From IMG/VR virus record IMGVR_UViG_2778261300_000008: 10,613 bases of DNA; one strand, given 5' to 3'. Both the position numbers and the translations under genes were made by a program. The notes under the pieces are model-generated. The model was not told the DNA's origin. It worked only from the letters and a program-made list of their open reading frames with translations, and ran no database searches. This document shows, piece after piece, positions 1-9,246 of the stretch; position 1 is the first letter of the stretch, and each line of letters begins with the position of its first letter. Source of the stretch: a virus. Its lineage: Duplodnaviria; Heunggongvirae; Uroviricota; Caudoviricetes.

Positions 1-183
1 CAGGCAGTTCATCGGCTCAATAACATACGGTGCCACCAGCGGATCCCACGGGACTGAGTTCCCTGCCCCCATGGGCACCCGCATATACTGAGCAACGGCA
101 TCAGCAACCCGCATTCGTCTCGGTGCGCGAAGGATATAACCTGAATCGGTTCGTGCTGCCTTTGCGGTTTCCTGATTCAGCAT
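1..183 (-). CDS. Terminase large subunit, N-terminal 61 codons (partial, runs off window start)
   Basis: The ATG at 181-183 overlaps the TAA stop of the upstream small-terminase gene by one base, and the reading frame stays open to position 1. Assignment is by position after the Nu1-like gene; I do not recognise the sequence itself. Confidence 0.45.
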   Translation of the reverse strand, partial: MLNQETAKAARTDSGYILRAPRRMRVADAVAQYMRVPMGAGNSVPWDPLVAPYVIEPMNCL

Positions 184-677
184 TACTCCTCCTGCTGTAA
201 TTCCTCCTCATCATCCGCACCTGCTTCAGTCACCCGCAGGGCTATCTGATCGCGCAGATCATCAATAATGGACTGAACACGGCTCACAGCGGCAGGCTGC
301 AGACCGCAGTCACGTTCAAGAATATCCGGTAATGTCTCCAGCACCTGCACGACCGCTTTTGCCCAGATGGCAAACTCCCGTCTGACATCACTGGCCGGAA
401 TGAGTTGTGCCGTTTCCTGTTCGAACTTAAGACGCTCACGTTCAGACTGATACCAGGCTTTGCGCTCATGCGCGTCCATTTCGCCTTCTGCAACCGGCGG
501 TGGTAATGCCAGAAATGCTGACACAATATCAACCACCCGATAAAGCTTGAGGTTGCTTTCATGCCCCCCTGCAACGGGTAGATTTTGCAGCCTTGCCGCA
601 GCAGTCTGGCGATGTACACCTGACAGTGCCGCCAGTTGACTGATATTCAGCGTCAGATTTTTTAACTCTCGCTCCAT
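183..677 (-). CDS. Terminase small subunit (Nu1-like DNA-packaging protein)
   Basis: 164-aa ORF whose N-terminus aligns by eye with the lambda Nu1 winged-HTH region (ISQLAALSGVHRQTAAARLQNLPVAGGHESNLKLY versus Nu1 KKQLADIFGASIRTIQNWQEQGMPVLRGGGKGNEVLY), followed by an acidic C-terminus. GGAG lies 8 nt upstream of the ATG, and a cos-like site sits about 175 bp upstream. Confidence 0.65.
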   Translation of the reverse strand: MERELKNLTLNISQLAALSGVHRQTAAARLQNLPVAGGHESNLKLYRVVDIVSAFLALPPPVAEGEMDAHERKAWYQSERERLKFEQETAQLIPASDVRREFAIWAKAVVQVLETLPDILERDCGLQPAAVSRVQSIIDDLRDQIALRVTEAGADDEEELQQEE

Positions 678-844
678 ACCCGCTCCAGAATGTTTTAAAC
701 ATGCATCTTGCGAACAACTTTAGGCAAACGGTGTTAGTGGTGAACAAAAAACAATCAAAATCGACACCATAAAAATAAAACCACCGTAATATCAATACAT
801 TACAGTAGTAGTGATGACGAATGAAATTTCAAAAACTAGCCTTT

Positions 845-870
845 TTCCGCGACGCTCCCGCCCCGTGGCA
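845..870 (-). other. Candidate cos site (cosN-like)
   Basis: The minus strand reads GGGCGGGAGCGTCGCGG, against lambda cosN GGGCGGCGACCTCGCGG as I recall it, and the following AT-rich stretch has GCTA/TTT/TGAAA/TTT elements like lambda cosB. It lies about 175 bp upstream of the small-terminase ATG; lambda cosN to Nu1 is about 190 bp. Confidence 0.4.
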
Positions 871-1256
871 GGCCACCCCACCGGGAGGACCCGTCAGCCT
901 GACAGCTCTGACGAACGTCTGATACAACGCCTTGCATGAATGGCATCGGGATAATCCAGAAAGGCATAGCATCGTGCCCACAAGAATCTGTGTAAGTGTC
1001 CTGTTTCTTCCACCCCCGCACAGGACTGGCGAGCATGAGGGACAAACCCGCGAACCATAAACGCGGTAAAAACCCGGTGTGCATCGTTTTTGATTATTCC
1101 CGCACACTCGCGCAGAAGGAGTTCCCCGTCGGGCTACGGTCTCTGTTAATACGGGAATACGGCGACGATACAGCGCATGATGTGTCAGGCTTGAATACCT
1201 TTATCCGTTAAAAGGGATATCAGTTAAGCTATCCCGTGTAGGGTATAAGCCATTAT

Positions 1257-1286
1257 CAAAGCCACTCTGTAGGGAGTGGCTTTTGT
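1257..1286. terminator. Bidirectional intrinsic terminator
   Basis: Stem GCCACTC (1261-1267) pairs with GAGTGGC (1274-1280) around a 6-nt loop, with AAA on the 5' side and TTTTGT on the 3' side. It lies between the lysis cassette and the cos region. Confidence 0.5.
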
Positions 1287-1492
1287 AATGGCAATAAAAA
1301 GCCCCGCGAATGCGAGGCTAAATCCTGGTATTTGTAATGACTGGCTCTTATCTCAACGCAGCCCCTTACCGCGCGCAAGATGCTCAATATCAAGCATCAG
1401 CAATGAGATGTTTAATCTGGATTCACTCCAGAAGTGATCACCATCCTGTCTACAGAGCCAGATGTGAAGGATGATGAGTAAAATTATCGCTA

Positions 1493-1960
1493 TCATCGAA
1501 GGCATTGCGTCCTGATGTATTCCTGAAGCGTTCTCAGTGCTGTTTGGTCGCGGATAATTCCGTCCCGGATACCGAGAACGTTTCGTCCAGCAACTGGAGA
1601 GAGTTCGACGGTGGCATCATTGCCCATGCCGGAGGCGCTGGAGGTTTCGGCTGAGGATGGCACAGGGCATTTTCCTTTGACGAACACCCGACCACCATTA
1701 TCAAGCTTGCGCCGAAGAGCATCATTTTCAGCTTTCGCATCAGCTAACTCCTTCGTGTATTTAGCATCGAGTGCATCAGCAGAACGCTGGCGCTGCTGCA
1801 TGTCAGTAATGGTGGCGGTCGCCTGCTTCAGCTCACTGACTTTTTTATCTCGCTGTTCTTTGTAGGCGATGGCGTTATCACGGTAATGATTGACCGCCCA
1901 CGACAGGCAGACGATGATGCAGATAACCAGAGCGGAGATAATCGCGGTTACTCTGCTCAT
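1493..1960 (-). CDS. Rz: i-spanin Rz
   Basis: The product [30 protein letters not shown]... closely matches lambda Rz as recalled. I place the start at the MSRV Met (1958-1960), which overlaps the endolysin stop, rather than at the first ATG of the ORF-track entry. Confidence 0.9.
1534..1740 (-). CDS. Rz1: o-spanin Rz1, lipoprotein embedded in the +1 frame of Rz
   Basis: Product [21 protein letters not shown]... has the lambda Rz1 N-terminus pattern, a lipobox (VVGC) and a proline-rich stretch, and is wholly embedded in Rz. Confidence 0.85.
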
Positions 1961-2454
1961 TGTTGCCCCCACAAACAGACTTCACGCTCAATCTCACGAC
2001 GAGTCATCAGGCCTTTCCATTGCTTACCGCCAGCGTATATCCAGCGACGTAGCTGGTCACATGCGCCTTTGATATCGCCCTGGTTTATTTTGCGAAGAAG
2101 CGTCGATGTTCTGAAATTGCCAGCACCCACGTTGTAGACGAACGAGTAAAGAGCGCCGCGCGTTGTTTCCGGTATATCGACTTTGATGTACGGGTTAATT
2201 TGTCTGGCAACCGTGGCAAGGTCTTTATTCAGGAGGGCTTTGCATTCTGCTTCGGTATACGTTTTACCGAGCATGATGTCTTTTCCGGTGTGTCCGTGAC
2301 ATACAGTCCATACGCCAACGATATCTTTGTATGGTATGTAGCTGACACCTTCCAGGCCATCGTCACCACTTGGGCCAGTGATTAACACTGATGCTATAGC
2401 AATTGCTCCGCCACCAATAGCAGCAGCAACTGCTTTTCGTAATGATGGAGGCAT
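1957..2454 (-). CDS. SAR endolysin (phage 21 R-type lysozyme)
   Basis: The 165-aa product begins [27 protein letters not shown], a glycine/alanine-rich signal-anchor-release N-terminus, and matches phage 21 R as recalled. The start overlaps the stop of the holin remnant (TAATG). Confidence 0.9.
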
Positions 2455-2516
2455 TATTCACCTCTCGCAGCCTTGCGCTTATCTTCTTTAATCTTGAAAT
2501 AAAGGTTTGTCAGGTA
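2454..2516 (-). pseudogene. Pinholin (S21-like) 3' remnant, last ~19 codons only
   Basis: The minus-strand frame ending at the TAA that overlaps the endolysin ATG reads [20 protein letters not shown], matching the recalled S21 C-terminus LTNLYFKIREDRRKAARGE. Upstream of the Tyr codon the frame diverges (PG...), and no transmembrane segments or start codon are present. Confidence 0.6.
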
Positions 2517-2749
2517 CCCTGGCGACGCGCCTTACGCGTTAACCAGCCTTCTGCTTCCAGCCGTGCGATAGCCGTTCTGACGGTACTCATCCCCGCGCCA
2601 ATCTGACGGGCAATGGTTTCAATTGATGGCCAGCACACACCTTCGTCATTACTGAAATCAGCCAGGCGGGCCATAATTGCCACGCTGGATAACTTCATGC
2701 CTGATGCAGCGCAACCATCCCATACATAGCCGGTTAATTTAGTGCTCAT
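2510..2749 (-). pseudogene. Replication-initiator (O-like) N-terminal fragment, truncated at a deletion junction
   Basis: The 79-aa ORF MSTKLTGYVWDGCAASGMKLSSVAIMARLADFSNDEGVCWPSIETIARQIGAGMSTVRTAIARLEAEGWL has a winged-helix fold pattern typical of lambdoid replication-protein N-termini. AGAGG lies upstream of the ATG, and the frame ends with a short unrelated tail (TRKARRQGT*) as it enters the holin remnant. Confidence 0.55.
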
Positions 2750-2758
2750 GACCGACCT

Positions 2759-3097
2759 CTATTTCCCTGAATTTACGACGAAACTGTTCGAGCGGACTGA
2801 AGCATTCATGCTCATAACCTTCGCGGAGGTAGATAACCCGTTGTGTTTCCGGCTCCCAACGAATGACTCTGACGGGCACTCCGTAGTGATCTTTGAACCA
2901 GCAGTTAACTTGTCGCAAAGGACTGTCTCCTTCTGCCGGTTGAAATCACCCACAGCCCACTCTGCAAAGCTGTGGGTTACAATTTCCCTGTCACCTGGTA
3001 CATTCACTGCATAGCAATATTCCACCTTCGCTTTTCCACCCGGTACAGGAAGCGCAATCAGTTGCGAGCGACGGTAGTGTGTTGTTAAACTGTTCAT
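2759..3097 (-). CDS. Hypothetical protein in the early-right operon
   Basis: The 112-aa ORF is translationally coupled at both ends: its ATG overlaps the stop of the upstream gene (ATGA at 3094-3097), and its stop lies 8 nt before the replication-fragment start. I do not recognise the product. Confidence 0.45.
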
Positions 3098-3663
3098 GCG
3101 TTAGTTTCTCCACAACCAGAAGCAATCGACGCCACGACGCCCGGAGCTGCACACTCGCGGGCGTCATTACTTTCTGAAATGCAAAAAATTTTGTAGACAA
3201 GTGCTGCATGCTCCTGCAGCTTCGAAATTGAGAGATACAGCTCGTCGTTAATTGCTGTCTTCTCATGCGGTTCCACTACACCGTCTTCGATTGCTGAACG
3301 AATCTGTTTTGAATAACTGCCGATCTGTTCAATGACTTCCAGCAGACGCTGGTTAATATCGGCGTTGTCCACATCCTCGACGTCAGGAAGAGACACAAAG
3401 ACGCCATTTGCAGACTGCGCCACAGCATCAGCAATGAAGTGAGTGCCACCAGCACGCTGTAAAACCATTGCCCATCCCAGCGGGAAAATCTGATCGCCAT
3501 CTGCACGAAGGCGGTTGAATAAAGCGTTTTCTGTTACATCGAGCCAGTCAGCCGCTTCAGCGTAACCACCCGGCAACGCCGCGATAGTTTTTCTGACAGC
3601 TTTCACGTACCACTCAGGCTGTTTTTCTATTTTCCAGTGATGCTTACCCACGATTAGCCTCAT
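3094..3663 (-). CDS. Putative CII/YdaT-like early regulatory protein
   Basis: 189-aa ORF immediately downstream of the Cro-like gene, the position occupied by cII or YdaT in lambdoid prophages. The Shine-Dalgarno is weak, and the family assignment is by position and general character only. Confidence 0.45.
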
Positions 3664-3694
3664 CGTTCTGTGGTTAAAAATTGAAAGTGTTCTG

Positions 3695-3895
3695 CTAATC
3701 TTTCGGATAGATATCCGGTCTTAAGTCAGATTTCGTAATTGCACCTGACGTGCATTGCTCAAGTTTTTTAGCCAGCACAAAACTGGCTTTTTTATAGCCA
3801 TTGAAAACCAGCCGTAAGTAGCCAGGTGTTGAGCCAACTTTTCCGGCCAACTCGCCCTGCTGTTCTTTGGTTAAAGAGTCCCAATACGCTTTCAT
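3695..3895 (-). CDS. Cro/YdaS-like HTH regulator
   Basis: 66-aa product MKAYWDSLTKEQQGELAGKVGSTPGYLRLVFNGYKKASFVLAKKLEQCTSGAITKSDLRPDIYPKD is divergent from the repressor gene. GGAGGT lies about 9 nt upstream of the ATG at 3893-3895. The longer 167-aa ORF-track version (3695..4198) has no ribosome-binding site and overlaps the repressor. Confidence 0.75.
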   Translation of the reverse strand: MKAYWDSLTKEQQGELAGKVGSTPGYLRLVFNGYKKASFVLAKKLEQCTSGAITKSDLRPDIYPKD

Positions 3896-3897
3896 AC

Positions 3898-3922
3898 AAT
3901 ATGTACCTCCGGTGTACATATT
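3898..3922. promoter_or_regulatory. Operator palindrome (OR-like) overlapping the cro-side promoter -10 and leader
   Basis: Perfect 9-bp inverted repeat AATATGTAC (3898-3906) and GTACATATT (3914-3922) around a 7-bp spacer. It overlaps a minus-strand TAATAT -10 (3918-3923), with a TTGAAG -35 at 3940-3945. Confidence 0.5.
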
Positions 3923-3949
3923 ACATGATTGAAATGAACCTTCAAGATA

Positions 3950-3970
3950 CTTGTACCTTAACGGTACAAG
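3950..3970. promoter_or_regulatory. Operator palindrome (OR-like) overlapping the repressor promoter
   Basis: Perfect 8-bp inverted repeat CTTGTACC and GGTACAAG around a 5-bp spacer, sharing the TGTAC core with the other operators. A TTTAAT -10 at 3974-3979 places the transcription start near the cI ATG. Confidence 0.5.
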
Positions 3971-3985
3971 GGTTTTAATTTCGTT

Positions 3986-4660
3986 ATGAAAACAATCCAT
4001 GACATCCGGCGGTCTAACGCCAGAAAACTGAGAGATGGTGTTGGCGGGAATTCTTCCTTTGCCACTATGATTGATCGCGAGCCAACCCAGACCAGCAGGT
4101 TTATGGGAGATGGTGCTACTAAAAATATCGGTGACAGCATGGCACGACACATCGAAAAATGTTTCGACCTGCCTGTCGGATGGCTCGATCAAGAACACCA
4201 GACAACGAACATCACAAAAAAACCTGATGTTTCAATCACTAATAAACAAATCACATTAGTCCCTGTCATATCATGGGTACAGGCCGGAGCATGGAAAGAA
4301 GTTGGATATTCTGAGGTTGATTTGAGCACAGCAGAAACGTATCCCTGCCCTGTACCCTGTGGGGAAATGACTTATATCTTGCGGGTGATAGGTGATTCAA
4401 TGATTGATGAGTACCGCCCGGGAGACATGATTTTTGTCGATCCTGAAGTACCTGCCTGCCACGGTGACGACGTTATTGCATTGATGCACGATACAGGTGA
4501 AACCACCTTCAAAAGGTTGATAGAAGATGGGACACAGCGTTATCTCAAAGCGTTAAACCCAAACTGGCCTGAGCCTTACATTAAGATCAACGGTAATTGC
4601 TCTATAATTGGTACAGTGATTTTCTCAGGAAAACCAAGAAGATACAAAATCAAAGCCTAA
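3986..4660 (+). CDS. CI/C2-like prophage repressor with C-terminal S24 (LexA-type) peptidase domain
   Basis: The C-terminal half (VISWVQAGAWKEV...VIGDSMIDEYRPGDMIFVDPEV...TTFKRL...LNPNWPEPYIKINGNCSIIGTV) resembles the P22 C2 and lambda CI autocleavage domain, with an Ala-Gly site, a GDSM serine and an FKRL lysine. The N-terminal domain is diverged, there is no Shine-Dalgarno upstream, and an intrinsic terminator follows. Confidence 0.85.
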   Translation: MKTIHDIRRSNARKLRDGVGGNSSFATMIDREPTQTSRFMGDGATKNIGDSMARHIEKCFDLPVGWLDQEHQTTNITKKPDVSITNKQITLVPVISWVQAGAWKEVGYSEVDLSTAETYPCPVPCGEMTYILRVIGDSMIDEYRPGDMIFVDPEVPACHGDDVIALMHDTGETTFKRLIEDGTQRYLKALNPNWPEPYIKINGNCSIIGTVIFSGKPRRYKIKA

Positions 4661-4672
4661 TCAATGTTTATG

Positions 4673-4697
4673 AACCTGCTTCGGCAGGTTTTTTTAT
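4673..4697 (+). terminator. Intrinsic terminator of the repressor gene
   Basis: Stem AACCTGC, loop TTCG, stem GCAGGTT, then TTTTTAT, starting 13 bp after the cI stop. Confidence 0.7.
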
Positions 4698-4699
4698 AC

Positions 4700-4732
4700 T
4701 TGACAATGTACCTTTGAGATACATAATGTACC
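4700..4732 (+). promoter_or_regulatory. pL-like early-left promoter with overlapping operators (OL-like)
   Basis: TTGACA (4700-4705), a 16-bp spacer and CATAAT (4722-4727). The 11-bp perfect palindrome TACATAATGTA (4720-4730) overlaps the -10, and ATGTACC occurs at both 4706-4712 and 4726-4732, sharing the TGTAC core with the OR palindromes. Confidence 0.55.
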
Positions 4733-4853
4733 CAAGCGAAACAACGAACAGTCAGGACGCCCACGAAGTAGCCGCCTGGGGCATATGAAGTCCAGGATGA
4801 TTCGTTGAGTCATGTTGTGCCACTAGGCACTCATGTTAAAGCAGGTGTATGAA

Positions 4854-5129
4854 ATGAAAGTCCAGATTTTAAACAATAACTGTGAAGTCGTTTGGTCATA
4901 CGACATAGCCACCCCTGTAGATCAGAGCGGCGATAGCTGGACCAATGGGAAACATCAGATTATGGCTGGAGTTGTGTTCTCTTTACGCCGTGCTTTGGAA
5001 CAGGCTGAAGTATTTCCATCAGACCCTGAATGGAAATGGCCTTTTTCTATTTGTCCAAATTCGGAGAGCACATTTCAGAAAATTGGTCAGAAAGTCGCAC
5101 TCGAAGAGCATCAGCCAACTGTTTCCTGA
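4854..5129 (+). CDS. Hypothetical protein, first ORF downstream of pL (not N-like)
   Basis: AGGTG lies 6 nt upstream of the ATG at 4854 (the ORF track starts at 4833). The product is not arginine-rich and is unrecognised. Its 3' end overlaps the convergent ORF 5047..5292 by 83 nt, so one of the two may be spurious. Confidence 0.35.
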   Translation: MKVQILNNNCEVVWSYDIATPVDQSGDSWTNGKHQIMAGVVFSLRRALEQAEVFPSDPEWKWPFSICPNSESTFQKIGQKVALEEHQPTVS

Positions 5130-5292
5130 TTTTTTCAGGTAACTCGTCGGCATCGCAGAAACAACAACGCTCGATCATGTTGAAAGCCGATTCGTAGAAC
5201 TGTTTCTGCTGAGTGTCGCTGAGACAGGAAAAGAGCGACGTTACGATGATTTTATTAATTGCATTATCAAGTTCTTTTTCATCAAAAGTCAT
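5047..5292 (-). CDS. Hypothetical small Cys-containing protein, antisense to the pL transcript
   Basis: 81-aa ORF with AAGGA 8 nt upstream of the ATG. The composition is protein-like (helical, five Cys including a CCFC motif), the local DNA is AT-rich, and I do not recognise the product. Confidence 0.4.
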   Translation of the reverse strand: MTFDEKELDNAINKIIVTSLFSCLSDTQQKQFYESAFNMIERCCFCDADELPEKIRKQLADALRVRLSDQFSEMCSPNLDK

Positions 5293-5545
5293 TTGATTTT
5301 CCTTTTATGTATACGGGCTTAAAAGGATACCACCGAGCCTGAAGTGGTGAAAAGACAGGCACATAACAGCTAAGTATTTTCAACCAGAGAGAATCCTTAG
5401 CGTTGTGGTGAATGCGGCTCAGCGCACGCGGGTTAAGGTTGAAGCTGACAGTCGACCTTCTGTGAATACCCACCCGCCTGGTGTGCAACCTTCGCCAGGC
5501 ACCGGGAGGCACCCGGCACCACAACTTTATGCTGTGAGTAGTCCT

Positions 5546-5592
5546 GGCGGTACCAGCTTGTACCATTGCTTCCGGCTGGTACCGTCCTTTTT
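5546..5592 (+). terminator. Strong intrinsic terminator in the pL-operon path
   Basis: 12-bp stem GGCGGTACCAGC (5546-5557) pairs with GCTGGTACCGTC (5575-5586), with one G-U pair, around a 17-nt loop, followed by CTTTTTA. The loop contains CTTGTACC, identical to an OR operator half-site. Confidence 0.6.
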
Positions 5593-5681
5593 ACAAAACA
5601 GAGAAGAGCATCACCGGACGACGGGCTCATAACCCAATCCATCCGGGCGGCTGCCACCGCAGGTGTTCTTCTCTGTTTTGT
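5593..5681. repeat. 15-bp perfect inverted repeat flanking a 59-bp GC-rich spacer
   Basis: ACAAAACAGAGAAGA (5593-5607) and TCTTCTCTGTTTTGT (5667-5681); the pairing extends imperfectly to about 20 bp with wobbles. It lies directly after the terminator and about 50 bp before the yfdP-like start. Confidence 0.6.
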
Positions 5682-5729
5682 GGAGAAACTAACCGACCTT
5701 ACAGGGTCGATATGATGAGGAGCAGCAAA

Positions 5730-6092
5730 ATGGCTAGCGAACGCAGTACTGATGTGCAGGCATTTATCGGGGAGCTGGACGGCGGCGTATTTGAAACCAA
5801 AATCGGCGCAGTTCTCAGTGAAGTCGCTTCCGGTGTGATGAACACGAAAACCAAAGGTAAGGTCTCACTCAACCTGGAAATCGAACCATTTGATGAGAAC
5901 CGTGTGAAAATCAAACACAAACTCTCATATGTTCGCCCGACTAACCGCGGGAAAATTTCCGAAGAAGACACCACCGAAACGCCGATGTATGTCAATCGCG
6001 GTGGTCGCCTGACTATTCTGCAGGAAGACCAGGGACAATTACTGACTCTTGCCGGTGAACCTGACGGAAAACTCCGCGCAGCAGGTCATTAA
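5730..6092 (+). CDS. YfdP-like prophage protein of unknown function
   Basis: GAGGAG lies 8 nt upstream of the ATG at 5730 and falls inside the ORF-track N-terminal extension, so 5730 is the likelier start. The resulting 120-aa product MASERSTDVQAFIGELDGG... matches my recollection of KplE1/CPS-53 YfdP in size and sequence. Confidence 0.65.
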   Translation: MASERSTDVQAFIGELDGGVFETKIGAVLSEVASGVMNTKTKGKVSLNLEIEPFDENRVKIKHKLSYVRPTNRGKISEEDTTETPMYVNRGGRLTILQEDQGQLLTLAGEPDGKLRAAGH

Positions 6093-6157
6093 TATCGTTC
6101 TTAATTAACTGATTATTTATCTCATCACTGAATATCTTTATATAGTGAGGACTTATT

Positions 6158-6982
6158 ATGTCTCAGAACTTAGACGCAACCGCAATTAATCAAATCCATG
6201 CCCTTATTTCTGCTCAGGGTGTTAATGAAATTATCAGTAAGATTGGTGCCGATGCTGTGGCATTGCCTGAGAATTTCCGCATTCATGATCTGGAAAAATT
6301 TAATTTAAATCGCTTCCGTTTCCGTGGTGCGCTTTCCACTGCCAGCATCGATGACTTTACCCGTTATTCTAAAGATCTTGCAGATGAAGGCACCCGCTGC
6401 TTTATCGATGCTGATAATATGCGAGCCGTCAGTGTGCTTAACCTGGGTACTATTGATGAACCAGGTCACGCAGATAACACCGCCACTCTCAAACTGAAAA
6501 AGACAGCACCGTTCTCTGCCCTGTTGTCTGTTAACGGCGAGCGTAACTCCCAGAAGTCACTGGCAGAATGGATTGAAGACTGGGCCGACTACCTTGTGGG
6601 CTTTGATGCTAATGGTGACGCCATTCAGGCAACAAAAGCGGCTGCGGCGGTCCGTAAAATCACGATTGAAGCAAACCAGACCGCTGATTTTGAAGACAAT
6701 GACTTCAGCGGCAAACGCTCTCTGATGGAGTCTGTCGAAGCGAAAACCAAAGACATTATGCCAGTAGCATTTGAGTTTAAATGCGTTCCGTTTGAAGGCC
6801 TGAAAGAACGTCCGTTTAAATTACGCCTCAGCATTATCACTGGTGATCGCCCTGTACTGGTTCTGCGCATTATTCAGCTGGAAGCAGTACAGGAAGAAAT
6901 GGCTAACGAATTTCGTAATCTGCTTGTTGAAAAATTCAAAGACAGCAAAGTAGAAACCTTTATTGGTACTTTCACCGCCTGA
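6158..6982 (+). CDS. yfdQ: YfdQ-like protein (DUF2303 family)
   Basis: 274-aa ORF with GAGGA upstream of the ATG. Size and sequence character match recalled YfdQ of the E. coli KplE1/CPS-53 prophage, and a hairpin terminator follows. Confidence 0.75.
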
Positions 6983-6994
6983 TTTCATTACTGC

Positions 6995-7018
6995 AAATGC
7001 CCCTGCGGGGGCATTTAT
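6995..7018. terminator. Hairpin terminator after the yfdQ-like gene
   Basis: AAATGCCCC (6995-7003) pairs with GGGGCATTT around a TGCG-type loop, flanked by an A-tract and a T-tract, 13 bp after the stop. Confidence 0.55.
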
Positions 7019-7109
7019 GGAAACGTAATTAACTCAATAATCGCCTGATGGCGAGGGTTTTCTTTAACCAAAATTCAGCGCGGTGCAGCGCATATACGTG
7101 GAGAACAAA

Positions 7110-7646
7110 ATGTCATTTATTAAAACTTTTTCCGGGAAGCATTTTTATTATGACAGGATAAATAAAGACGACATCGATATTAACGATATCGCGGTTTCCC
7201 TTTCAAATATCTGTCGCTTTGCCGGTCATCTTTCGCACTTCTACAGCGTCGCCCAACATGCGGTTCTTTGCAGCCAGTTGGTGCCGCAGGAATTTGCTTT
7301 TGAAGCGTTAATGCATGATGCAACAGAAGCGTATTGCCAGGACATTCCCGCACCACTGAAACGCCTTCTTCCTGACTATAAACAAATGGAAGAAAAAATA
7401 GACGCCGTAATCCGTGAGAAATACGGGTTACCCCCAGTTATGAGTACGCCCGTGAAATATGCCGATCTCATCATGCTGGCAACCGAACGCCGCGATCTCG
7501 GGCTTGATGATGGCTCTTTCTGGCCTGTACTGGAAGGTATCCCGGCAACAGAGATGTTCAACGTGATTCCACTGGCACCGGGCCATGCCTACGGGATGTT
7601 TATGGAACGCTTTAACGAGTTATCGGAGTTACGCAAATGCGCATGA
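7110..7646 (+). CDS. yfdR: YfdR-like HD-domain phosphohydrolase
   Basis: An H...HD motif is present (AQHAVLCSQLV...EALMHDATEAYCQD). The product from MSFIKTFSGKHFYYD is 178 aa with GGAG upstream, matching recalled K-12 YfdR. The ORF track begins 27 nt earlier at 7083. Confidence 0.8.
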   Translation: MSFIKTFSGKHFYYDRINKDDIDINDIAVSLSNICRFAGHLSHFYSVAQHAVLCSQLVPQEFAFEALMHDATEAYCQDIPAPLKRLLPDYKQMEEKIDAVIREKYGLPPVMSTPVKYADLIMLATERRDLGLDDGSFWPVLEGIPATEMFNVIPLAPGHAYGMFMERFNELSELRKCA

Positions 7647-7960
7647 ATGTTTTCGAAATGGAAGGGTTTCTTCGTGGGAGATGTGTACCGCGAGATCTGA
7701 AAGTAAATGAAACAGATGCTGAATACCTGGTGCGTAAATTCGATGCGCTTGAAGCTAAATGTGCAGCACAGGAAAACAAAGTAATACCAGTGTCAACTGA
7801 ACTGCCACCAGCAAATGAAAGTGTTTTGTTATTCGATGCTAACGGAGAAGGCTGGCTAATTGGTTGGCGTTCTCTCTGGTACACCTGGGGACAAAAAGAA
7901 ACCGGAGAATGGCAGTGGACATTTCAGGTCTTCAGTCTCCGCTGCATACTGTCCAGGTGA
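7637..7960 (+). CDS. YfdS-like hypothetical protein immediately upstream of int (possibly truncated)
   Basis: 107-aa ORF with GGAG 8 nt upstream; an alternative ATG at 7643 makes an ATGA overlap with the yfdR-like stop. It is mildly acidic and lacks an obvious HTH, so it does not look like a typical excisionase. Confidence 0.5.
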   Translation: MRMNVFEMEGFLRGRCVPRDLKVNETDAEYLVRKFDALEAKCAAQENKVIPVSTELPPANESVLLFDANGEGWLIGWRSLWYTWGQKETGEWQWTFQVFSLRCILSR

Positions 7961-7991
7961 GCGCGGGTGATGGCATAACAGAGGAAAGAAA

Positions 7992-9155
7992 ATGTCACTC
8001 TTCCGCAGAGGTGAAATATGGTACGCCAGTTTCACATTGCCGAACGGTAAAAGATTTAAACAGTCTCTTGGAACAAAGGACAAAAGGCAGGCGACAGAAC
8101 TCCATGACAAGCTAAAGGCTGAAGCATGGCGGGTCAGCAAACTTGGTGAAATACCTGATATAACGTTCGAGGAAGCGTGTGTCAGGTGGCTTGAAGAGAA
8201 AGCACATAAAAAATCACTGGACGATGACAAAAGCCGGATCGGATTCTGGCTTCAACATTTCGCAGGAATGCAACTAAGAGACATTACTGAATCAAAAATT
8301 TATTCAGCAATGCAGAAAATGACGAACCGGCGTCATGAGGAAAACTGGAGACTCAGGGCAGAAGCATGCAGAAAAAAAGGGAAACCTGTTCCAGAATACA
8401 CGCCAAAACCAGCGTCCGTTGCAACGAAGGCTACGCATCTTTCATTTATAAAGGCCCTACTAAGAGCCGCAGAGCGTGAATGGAAAATGCTGGATAAGGC
8501 ACCAATTATTAAAGTGCCTCAACCAAAGAATAAACGGATCCGCTGGCTGGAGCCCCATGAAGCACAAAGGCTGATTGATGAATGTCCGGAGCCATTAAAG
8601 TCTGTTGTTGAATTTGCACTGGCAACAGGCTTAAGACGCTCGAACATCATCAACCTTGAATGGCAACAAATAGACATGCAGCGCCGGGTGGCATGGATAA
8701 ACCCGGAAGAGAGTAAATCAAACCGCGCAATTGGCGTTGCGCTGAATGATACTGCATGTCGCGTTTTGAAAAAACAAATCGGGAATCATCACCGTTGGGT
8801 ATTTGTGTACAAGGAAAGCTGTACCAAACCAGACGGAACGAAAGCGCCAACAGTAAGGAAGATGCGGTATGACGCAAACACAGCCTGGAAAGCGGCGCTG
8901 AGACGGGCTGGTATTGATGATTTCAGATTTCACGACTTGAGACACACCTGGGCAAGTTGGCTGGTTCAAGCCGGAGTCCCGTTGTCAGTGTTACAGGAAA
9001 TGGGAGGCTGGGAGTCTATCGAAATGGTTCGTCGATATGCTCACCTTGCACCTAATCACCTTACCGAACACGCACGGCAAATAGACTCGATCCTGAACCC
9101 ATCGGTCCCAAATTCGTCCCAGTCAAAAAATAAGGAAGGTACTAATGATGTGTAA
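7992..9155 (+). CDS. int: Tyrosine integrase, P22 Int type
   Basis: 387-aa product [48 protein letters not shown]...[39 protein letters not shown] closely matches recalled P22 Int, including the catalytic R...HxxR...Y box. GAGGAAAG precedes the ATG, and the stop lies 15 nt from the tRNA 3' end. Confidence 0.95.
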
Positions 9156-9170
9156 CTTATTGATTTAAAT

Positions 9171-9246
9171 GGTGCCGATAATAGGAGTCGAACCTACGAC
9201 CTTCGCATTACGAATGCGCTGCTCTACCAACTGAGCTATATCGGCC
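9171..9246 (-). tRNA. thrW: tRNA-Thr (anticodon CGU)
   Basis: The minus strand reads GCCGATATAGCTCAGTTGGTAGAGCAGCGCATTCGTAATGCGAAGGTCGTAGGTTCGACTCCTATTATCGGCACCA, a 76-nt cloverleaf with a TTCGACT T-loop, anticodon CGT and encoded CCA. P22 Int-type elements are known to target thrW. Confidence 0.92.

Follow-up and report, generated by a model that had tools for sequence, protein, structure and literature searches.

Anatomy of a cryptic lambdoid prophage at thrW of Escherichia coli and a recurrent breakpoint in its replication gene

Organization of the thrW Locus

The DNA analyzed here, IMG/VR record IMGVR_UViG_2778261300_000008, is a stretch of 10,613 nt (hereafter the window, meaning the whole stretch) that carries phage genes next to the Escherichia coli host genes thrW and proA. 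Based on an open reading frame (ORF) listing combined with family scans and RNA scans of the whole window, we have assembled the gene map given below. We propose, with a probability of about 0.88, that the window is the thrW-proximal part of a defective mosaic lambdoid E. coli prophage, crippled by two short-homology deletions. The anatomy, both junctions, the existence of intact parents and the rarity of the arrangement can be read directly from the sequences compared. One end of the larger deletion coincides to the nucleotide with the breakpoints of the K-12 prophages e14 and CPS-53. A first-pass annotation of the window had recognized a remnant prophage at thrW with lambdoid gene order; indeed, thrW, int, the CI/Cro/YmfL genes, the lysozyme gene, Rz/Rz1, terS and the start of terL all lie where it had placed them. 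The Rfam scan found no RNA in the window besides the tRNA. The features are as follows (sequences used for comparison carry L-numbers).

1–183, minus strand: 5' end of terL (large terminase, GpA type), codons 1–61, continuing past the left window end; from gene calls in the identical sequences L004 and L014
183–677, minus strand: terS (small terminase subunit, DUF1441 family), intact, 164 aa; PF07278, E 2.7e-41; phrog_141 "terminase small subunit", E 1.2e-73
678–1492, minus strand: spacer separating the lysis genes from terS, with a 50-aa hypothetical ORF (1353–1505) and hairpins at 809–780 and 1319–1300
1493–1972, minus strand: Rz spanin (PF03245, E 8.6e-29), with embedded Rz1 at 1534–1740 (PF06085, E 3.8e-21)
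1957–2454, minus strand: endolysin of RrrD/R21 type, GH24 plus N-terminal membrane-anchor segment, intact, 165 aa; PF00959, E 1.8e-45
2454–2517, minus strand: remnant of essD (P21-type pinholin), final ~20 codons only, 64 nt; the match to L003 ends at 2517
2515–2517: junction of deletion 1 with TAC microhomology; base-level alignment against intact rep (L001) and intact essD (L003)
2510–2749, minus strand: stump of an O-like replication initiator, codons 1–78 (winged-HTH domain), plus Thr and a stop codon from the essD remnant; PF13730 HTH_36, phrog_11896, phrog_391
2739–3097, minus strand: ymfM, 112 aa (2759–3097), overlapping a DUF4222 ORF (2739–2918); family and phrog matches, e14 comparison
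3094–3663, minus strand: ymfL, CII-like regulator; PF06892, phrog_101 "CII-like transcriptional activator"
3695–3895, minus strand: Cro-like repressor (ymfT/croE), 66 aa; weak PF15943/HTH_3 matches, e14 comparison
3896–3985: divergent cro/cI control region with two operator-like palindromes; e14 identity, inverted-repeat search and direct reading of the sequence
3986–4660, plus strand: CI repressor (ymfK/cohE), LexA-like, with self-cleaving S24 peptidase domain; PF00717, E 1.5e-26
4833–5715: small ORFs (98 aa, plus strand; 81 aa, minus strand) and a frameshifted hypothetical gene; phrog_3195, phrog_3311; also annotated as frameshifted in L001, L002 and L140
5712–7646, plus strand: early-left genes yfdP (5712–6092), yfdQ (DUF2303; 6158–6982) and yfdR (HD-domain 5'-deoxynucleotidase; 7083–7646); family and phrog matches
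7637–7960, plus strand: fusion ORF of deletion 2, 107 aa, yfdS codons 1–98 fused out of frame with the 3' half of a xis-like gene; alignment with L001
7992–9155, plus strand: tyrosine integrase gene int, SfV/SfIV/P22-like thrW group, full length, 387 aa; PF00589, E 3.5e-48
9170–9215: attL core, the 46-nt thrW 3' segment common to phage attP; phage homology stops at 9215
9170–9245, minus strand: thrW, tRNA-Thr (anticodon CGT); ARAGORN, Rfam RF00005 at 71.8 bits
9360–10613, minus strand: proA, host gene and chromosomal flank outside the prophage; annotated proA in every matching genome

The possibility of a mis-assembly, raised by the first-pass annotation, was checked against two independent National Center for Biotechnology Information (NCBI) assemblies (L004 and L014). 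Both are 100% identical to the window over all 10613 bases, so the arrangement is real and the joint genuine. In L014 the sequence continues without a break for 2.4 kb past the left window end, through the full 700-aa terL (PF05876/PF20454) and into the start of a portal gene. The window itself starts 2 nt from the end of draft contig NOMQ01000040.1 (L004), which breaks inside terL, presumably as a result of several lambdoid prophages of that genome sharing terL.

Two Deletions and the Reconstructed Parent Phage

The window joins two kinds of phage DNA, and most of its matches in complete genomes stop at 2515. Positions 2515–9215 are 98.3% identical to Shigella phage SfIV and 99% identical to the thrW prophages of many E. 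coli strains, while positions 1–2517 are 99.8% identical, with zero indels, to the lysis–terminase region of complete lambdoid prophages. The left and right matches overlap by TAC. At this joint (deletion 1), the 3' end of essD, from codon ~51 on, is connected to codon 78 of a 313-codon O-like rep gene that is intact in L001 (19294–20235). The break in rep, GGTTA^CCCTGG, falls at 2516|2517, and the match to L003 ends at 2517, 63 nt into essD (L003 22454–22669). The remaining rep stump corresponds to positions 1–78 of phrog_11896 (225) and phrog_391 (298). In intact rep, an array of iterons with a 15-nt period lies about 60 nt past the break. The iteron-like pattern gives nine clustered matches in L001 and none in the window, i.e., the window has no replication origin. 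In L001 this array (19786–19942; relatives H124 and H126) also encodes a pentapeptide repeat, SKSDP-like, and the iteron copy number varies among prophages by multiples of 15 nt (+30, +45).

Comparison with other thrW prophages, as suggested by the first-pass annotation, revealed the undeleted parent type. Both parts of the window are present at thrW in 122 of 5426 complete E. coli genomes, spread over 27–30 kb, a count obtained with a 20-kb query that allows matches to span the gap. All 122 have the same terS and terL genes, with order and orientation unchanged. Strain BN01 (L158) carries the window's own essD-rrrD-Rz-terS-terL block at thrW and has, between rep and essD, yfdN, a small LexA-like gene, RusA, KilA-N, DUF968, Q, a hypothetical gene and a DNA methyltransferase gene. 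In strain WY517-2 (L140) the entire 41-kb prophage is visible, out to lambda-like tail fibers. Some parents also have an N6-adenine methyltransferase gene within the deleted interval. The Q antiterminator and the P21-type holin of the parent were confirmed by Pfam and are seen in parents only. From these parent prophages, the size of deletion 1 is about 6–9 kb.

The shortening from integrase to terminase that the first-pass annotation had pointed out is real for the early-to-late interval: the distance from int start to terS start is 7.3 kb in the window vs. 14.5 kb in L158 and 17.2 kb in L140. Its extension to a compact prophage does not follow: the late genes continue past the left window end, and compactness is shown for this interval, not for the whole element. 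The list of lost functions likewise stands in part. Q, a complete holin, the origin and a full rep gene are absent; a 64-nt holin remnant (2454–2517) and a 79-codon rep stump (2510–2749) remain. Recombination genes and N were counted among the losses by mistake, since they were never part of this phage family: intact relatives have yfdP–yfdT in the left arm, without lambda-type exo/bet/gam or N.

A second lesion was overlooked in the earlier annotation. Compared to L001, about 540 bp are absent at 7920–7930 (deletion 2), where the joint is flanked by imperfect TTCAG(G)TC repeats. The loss takes in 22 codons at the end of yfdS, the whole of yfdT and codons 1 to ~52 of the xis-like gene, including its HTH_17 domain (PF12728, residues 6–36), so that just a 3' fragment of xis is left. 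In SfIV, the gene whose HTH is deleted here is the annotated excisionase (PMC3851460). Deletion 2 thus removed the DNA-binding half of the excisionase and would leave the prophage unable to excise efficiently. The integrase is left intact by this event.

The int gene ends 15 nt from thrW, shows about 98% DNA identity with its SfIV and SfV counterparts, and has the same reading frame as in L001. SfI, SfIV and SfV share a common 46-bp attP and integrate at thrW (PMC3851460). In the window the att core comprises the 46 nt of 9170–9215 and not 9171–9200 as annotated before. These 46 nt occur as two copies 23 kb apart in the relative L002 and as one copy in L140. The distal ends of thrW prophages differ among strains: in L002 the distal end (4999–5044) is an exact 46-nt att repeat beside a truncated LysR gene and paoD, and the distal end in L140 (44680–45012) is without an att repeat and contains an integrase pseudogene and IS1 copies.

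The defective status of the prophage is apparent from the absence, vs. intact relatives, of the iteron origin, most of rep, Q, most of the holin gene and the HTH of xis. Taken together, the comparisons suggest a parent phage of about 41 kb that would have combined an SfV/SfIV-type int-xis-yfdTSRQP arm with an e14 immunity module (cI-cro-ymfL-ymfM), an O-like rep gene with internal iteron origin, Q, a phage-21-type lysis cassette (pinholin, signal-anchor-release (SAR) endolysin, spanins) and lambda-type packaging and tail genes. From this parent, deletion 1 would have removed the origin, the rest of rep, yfdN, the small LexA-like gene, RusA, KilA-N, DUF968, Q, the DNA methyltransferase gene and most of the holin gene. 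Plausibly, the loss of xis came first and locked the prophage in place; differing deletions would then have stripped the replication functions in different descendants.

Immunity, Lysis and Packaging Modules

The first-pass annotation rightly noted that the immunity switch, integrase, lysis enzymes and packaging genes persist; Int and the endolysin are full-length, and TerS is intact. The immunity block is nearly indistinguishable from that of e14. CI is identical in 224 of 224 residues, Cro in 65 of 66, YmfL in 184 of 185 and YmfM in 111 of 112, and the DNA identity over 2516–4806 amounts to 99.2%. The cI–cro intergenic region (3896–3985) is fully identical to e14 and contains the palindrome TGTACC-N5-GGTACA twice, at about 3901–3919 and 3951–3969. 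Both copies are likely operators. Judged by CI, Cro and these predicted operators alike, the prophage would belong to the e14-immunity group.

The YmfM protein of e14 is SfiC, an SOS-inducible division inhibitor (bioRxiv 10.1101/2020.11.19.390815). On the minus strand, ymfM (112 aa) and the DUF4222 ORF (59 aa) overlap in different frames, and the e14 RefSeq record now annotates DUF4222 alone. A cloned "ymfM" fragment would hold most of both ORFs, and by sequence either product could be the one that acts.

On the late side, residues 1–165 of the endolysin match PDB entries 4zpu ("Lysozyme RrrD", E 6e-110) and 3hde (E 4e-109), and 3hdf also matches over the full length. We take it to be a phage-21-type SAR endolysin, which presumably reaches the periplasm without a holin. 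In the parents the intact essD belongs to PF04971 ("P21 holin S"); the window keeps just the 3'-end 64 nt of this gene, and no functional S21-type pinholin is found upstream of the endolysin. TerS has the same length as WP_000373425.1 of L003, L140 and L158. A terminator scan found minus-strand terminator-like hairpins only after Rz (1319–1300 and 809–780, both before terS) and no terminator-like site between the rep stump and the lysis genes. The spacer between Rz and terS is also without major genes in L003 and L158 and, by analogy with lambda-like terminases, probably holds cos. In the parent-type prophage of WY517-2 (L140) it contains an iss/bor serum-survival gene (19834–20127); the window spacer is without iss/bor. 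A query of positions 1–2700 is covered for at least 80% in 604 genomes, with a median of three matching places per E. coli genome.

A Recurrent Breakpoint in the Replication Gene

The rep break at window 2516|2517, in codon 78, corresponds to L001 20002|20003, to position 6001 of e14 (L018) and to position 6353 of CPS-53 (L019). In e14 the N-terminal side of rep survives as a fusion with terL; in CPS-53 it is the C-terminal side that survives, attached to the region upstream of yfdP. The exact 79-aa stump is also joined at the identical nucleotide to a tail-assembly gene (L005), gpJ (L006) and an unidentified sequence (L007). Looking up the exact stump is biased toward the shared breakpoint, and this bias was removed by flank-anchor sampling and by using the intact gene as query. 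With the intact rep gene, the K-12 matches break at the same position. Among 120 viral contigs sampled by the right flank, 115 are intact and five are broken exactly at TA|CCCTGG (two of e14 type, three with new partners); over the remaining 708 nt of rep, there are just four single breaks, at 92, 107, 642 and 663 nt from the site. Among 125 contigs sampled by the left flank, L145 and L153 break at the site while keeping the left side, and one more contig has a 1-nt deletion there. In the 90%-identity protein cluster of the stump (206 members), four further tails begin directly after ...RRQG among the 15 listed. At least 12 junctions that keep the right side and three that keep the left thus fall on one nucleotide, GGTTA^CCCTGG. 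No junction lies within the 60 nt separating the breakpoint from the iterons in the sampled contigs and junctions.

Where the native partner is known, the junctions show a microhomology of 2–5 nt that always includes A2516 of the window. The tracts are TAC, TAC, TACCC, ACC and TA; CPS-53, which is joined from the opposite side, again has TA. The junctions at GGTTA^CCCTGG, at least 15 in number, are independent and have different partners. The spread of one ancestral joint was considered and rejected: the foreign sequence differs from the first base beside the joint. The shared breakpoint must be mutational in cause, because selection cannot be that precise. To a more far-reaching proposal we give even odds, namely that rep of e14/SfV/CPS-53-type prophages holds a nucleotide-precise break or recombination hotspot, which joins either side to distant sites via 2–5 nt of homology and has independently produced e14, CPS-53, the thrW remnant and at least 12 other replication-dead prophages. 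Such a hotspot suggests a sequence-directed mechanism that would systematically make this family cryptic. Origin-linked fork arrest or nicking, a topoisomerase site and a specific nuclease are candidate mechanisms.

Several other mechanisms found no support. A hairpin or cruciform at the breakpoint was rejected, as folding of the two DNA strands yielded z-scores between about -0.1 and -0.8. Iteron-like Rep-binding motifs at the two recurrent breakpoints (the second one is described below) were searched without any window match with three or fewer mismatches; in this comparison the 10-nt fragment TTCGACGCAT alone recurs near the rep break site. An IS608-type TTAC target does not agree with the left-side-keeping junctions, which end at TTA, not TTAC. 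EcoRII/Dcm cleavage at CCTGG would place the cut 1 nt too far right for L005, CPS-53, L145 and L153. Int-mediated recombination at a secondary site is unlikely given three different integrases among the affected prophages, and a likeness to Hin/Gin/Pin invertase sites does not seem to fit.

A second recurrent breakpoint lies at window 3711|3712 (GATA|TCCGG; L015 2111|2112), 17 nt inside the 3' end of cro. It is used by the related sequences L015/L017, in which DUF968' is joined there, and independently by the unrelated L153, in which the rep hotspot is joined to that nucleotide. This hints that the phenomenon may be more general. At several native break sites, CC(N)GG is found 0–2 nt right of the break. 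Within rep, frameshifts recur in an A8 run at codon ~201, the clusters concerned having 148–386 member sequences, and codons 233, 252 and 283 are each fused to two different partners, the tail pairs at 252 and 283 sharing their first 2–3 residues. The literature found on ymfN, yfdO, oweE/oweS and e14 does not mention the shared breakpoint; an earlier description is possible.

Comparison With Known Phages and Cryptic Prophages

The closest known element is e14 (intE-xisE ... cohE-croE-ymfL-ymfM-oweE'::aaaE' ... pinE), with an immunity module essentially identical to that of the window. In both elements rep is cut at GGTTA^CCCTGG and fused to a late gene, the origin, Q and the holin gene are lost, and ymfM is kept. 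They differ in their location, e14 lying in icd with intE and the window prophage at thrW with an SfV-type Int. Further, rep is joined in e14 to the large terminase gene of a late region of HK97/Mu-tail type, but in the window to the pinholin gene of a late region of lambda/P21 type. The endolysin, the spanins, terS and the whole of terL survive in the window lineage because the deletion partner was the pinholin gene, unlike in e14. The xisE gene of e14 is annotated as frameshifted, while the window has lost the HTH of xis.

CPS-53 (KpLE1) shares the yfdP-yfdQ-yfdR(-yfdS-yfdT) arm, 96.8% identical to window 5711–7929. Its rep fragment (yfdO/oweS) starts at the nucleotide where the window fragment ends and is thus a mirror image: CPS-53 keeps the C-terminal side of rep together with the iterons and has lost the whole immunity module (deletion to window 5713|5714). 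Its integration site is argW and its integrase IntS, and it has O-antigen genes of gtr type.

The functional serotype-converting Shigella phages SfIV and SfV, which also use thrW, share Int, the 46-bp att core, the yfd genes and CI with 98% identity; in the case of SfIV, codons 1–78 of rep are also 98% identical (window 2515–9215). These phages differ in being complete, inducible and 37–40 kb long, with xis, a replication module, Q, their own lysis genes, a head, a Mu-like tail and gtr by attP. Neither SfIV nor SfV has a match to window 1–2514. Instead of the SfIV/SfV-type late region (P27-type TerS, HK97-like head, Mu-like tail), the window has a DUF1441 TerS and a GpA TerL of lambda type, and no gtr genes are present in the window or in the parents L140 and L158.

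Similar to the lysis cassette of phage 21 and DLP12 (S21, R21, Rz/Rz1), the window has an endolysin with a full-length match to RrrD and 3hde/3hdf. Its cassette differs in keeping only ~20 pinholin codons, in lacking the Q-dependent late promoter region and in abutting the early operon. With lambda the prophage has in common the gene order (int, immunity, (replication), lysis, packaging), a LexA-like CI, a CII-like gene and a GpA-type TerL. As in lambda, origin iterons lie within the initiator gene in its intact relatives. Even the intact parents differ from lambda in having no exo/bet/gam or N, another TerS family (DUF1441) and another lysis type.

Decay Versus Retention and Other Explanations

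The first-pass annotation had interpreted the gene content as selective retention rather than random decay, in other words as domestication by a host that keeps a useful integrase, immunity switch, lysis enzymes and packaging genes and purges the rest. We consider this improbable, and the evidence favors decay. In support of retention, the CI-Cro-YmfL-YmfM block is preserved as in e14, a long-lived cryptic prophage of K-12; cryptic prophages including e14 and CPS-53 reportedly aid E. coli under stress (PMC3105296); and the layout of immunity plus late genes, without replication, occurs in several independent remnants (e14, L005, L006, L071 and L098). However, two deletions account for everything, each cutting through ORFs. 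The common layout is accounted for by the common breakpoint: since one end of deletion 1 sits on the recurrent breakpoint of the gene family, the int–immunity–late genes layout, also seen in e14, is a repeated mutational outcome and not a sign of purposeful keeping. The impression of a non-random pattern was thus correct as regards a mutational bias, with the end of the large deletion on a nucleotide-precise recurrent breakpoint, but this is not evidence of retention. Nor is there an obvious use for packaging genes without Q, cos-to-cos substrates or replication.

Age and distribution point in the same direction. The window arrangement is missing from all 5426 complete E. coli genomes and is seen in a few draft assemblies of identical sequence; the junction ORFs are correspondingly rare, with the 79-aa ORF on 14 contigs and the 107-aa ORF on four. 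Against complete prophages, the retained late genes show 99.8% identity and no indels, and the early genes are 99.2–99.8% identical to e14 and a parent prophage, so that the survivors are as close to functional phages as such phages are to one another. Because of this near-identity, the arrangement is judged recent, with no sign of long-term maintenance and no time for selection to have acted. From 3712 rightwards, the sister lineage L015/L017 matches the window with 100% identity, and it shares the xis deletion. Its large deletion differs: cro' is fused to DUF968', followed by Q and an AAA_15/AAA_23 ATPase gene (L015 1–2400), and neither lysis nor terminase genes adjoin the immunity region. 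The two lineages show divergent decay after a shared first lesion. A domesticated remnant should be conserved across divergent hosts under purifying selection; what we find is an arrangement outside all complete genomes, copies without a single difference and a sister that lost other genes.

The remaining alternatives concern the joint itself. A rearrangement scar between rep' and essD', formed with a second lambdoid prophage located either in tandem at thrW or at another chromosomal site, is slightly less probable still than retention. Partner prophages would be available, considering the median of three matching places per E. coli genome for window 1–2700; the exact pair of rep allele and lysis cassette was not found in one thrW prophage among the complete genomes; and the window ends in terL, so that linkage further left is unseen. 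Yet one simple 6–9 kb deletion suffices, the parent types are present at thrW in 122 genomes with order and orientation unchanged (BN01 including essD-rrrD-Rz), and all other breakpoint junctions with an identifiable native partner join genes of the same prophage map, again in unchanged orientation. We regard a chimeric contig, joining two prophages at a repeat, as practically negligible: the end of NOMQ01000040.1 inside terL is indeed typical of a repeat-induced contig break, but the homology at the joint is just 3 nt, far under any assembler k-mer, and the sequence is present in two independent assemblies, one of which continues beyond the window. A phage satellite, such as a phage-inducible chromosomal island (PICI)-like element that packs int, two repressors as a pair and a small terminase closely together, is hardly credible either. 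It bears a superficial likeness in having ~8 kb from int to terS beside a tRNA gene, but next to terS come a full-size terL and a portal gene, identical to what ordinary prophages carry. The 78-codon stump of a phage O-like gene is all that it has in place of a satellite's own primase-replicase, and identity to full-length phages is 98% or more in every segment.

Some points weigh against the proposed origin from one parent by two deletions and decay. In no complete genome are the exact rep allele and the exact lysis cassette of the window found together at thrW. The rep allele differs in BN01 and the lysis cassette in WY517-2, and the single-deletion parent is therefore reconstructed, not observed. 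L014 extends just through terL and the portal start and thus stops short of the remaining late region and attR. In addition, the known copies are identical and leave no divergence for a dN/dS estimate of purifying selection on the retained genes. The expression predictions set out below (read-through from pR, arrest before terS, a holin-independent SAR endolysin) rest on consensus scans and knowledge of related phages.

Predicted Behavior and Implications

The CI of the remnant would still give e14-type immunity. Upon SOS induction, self-cleavage of CI would open pR, from which cro, ymfL, ymfM, the rep stump, rrrD and Rz may be expressed as one unit, since no terminator-like site intervenes to keep the endolysin and spanins off the pR transcript. 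The predicted outcome is filamentation, perhaps with slow lysis. With Q lost, transcription would mostly stop at the hairpins before terS, and because xis and the origin are lost, no excision, replication or particles would be expected from this locus.

As such, the window represents one more cryptic lambdoid prophage at a well-known tRNA site, and the remnant itself adds little, except that it illustrates how two deletions of random type are enough to leave a gene set that looks purposeful. More useful is the observation that the textbook K-12 prophages e14 and CPS-53, the thrW element and many others are broken at one nucleotide of rep. If a defined mechanism causes this break, it would explain the frequent occurrence of immobile, replication-dead remnants with an SOS-responsive immunity switch and YmfM, and would provide a testable entry point into how prophage domestication starts.

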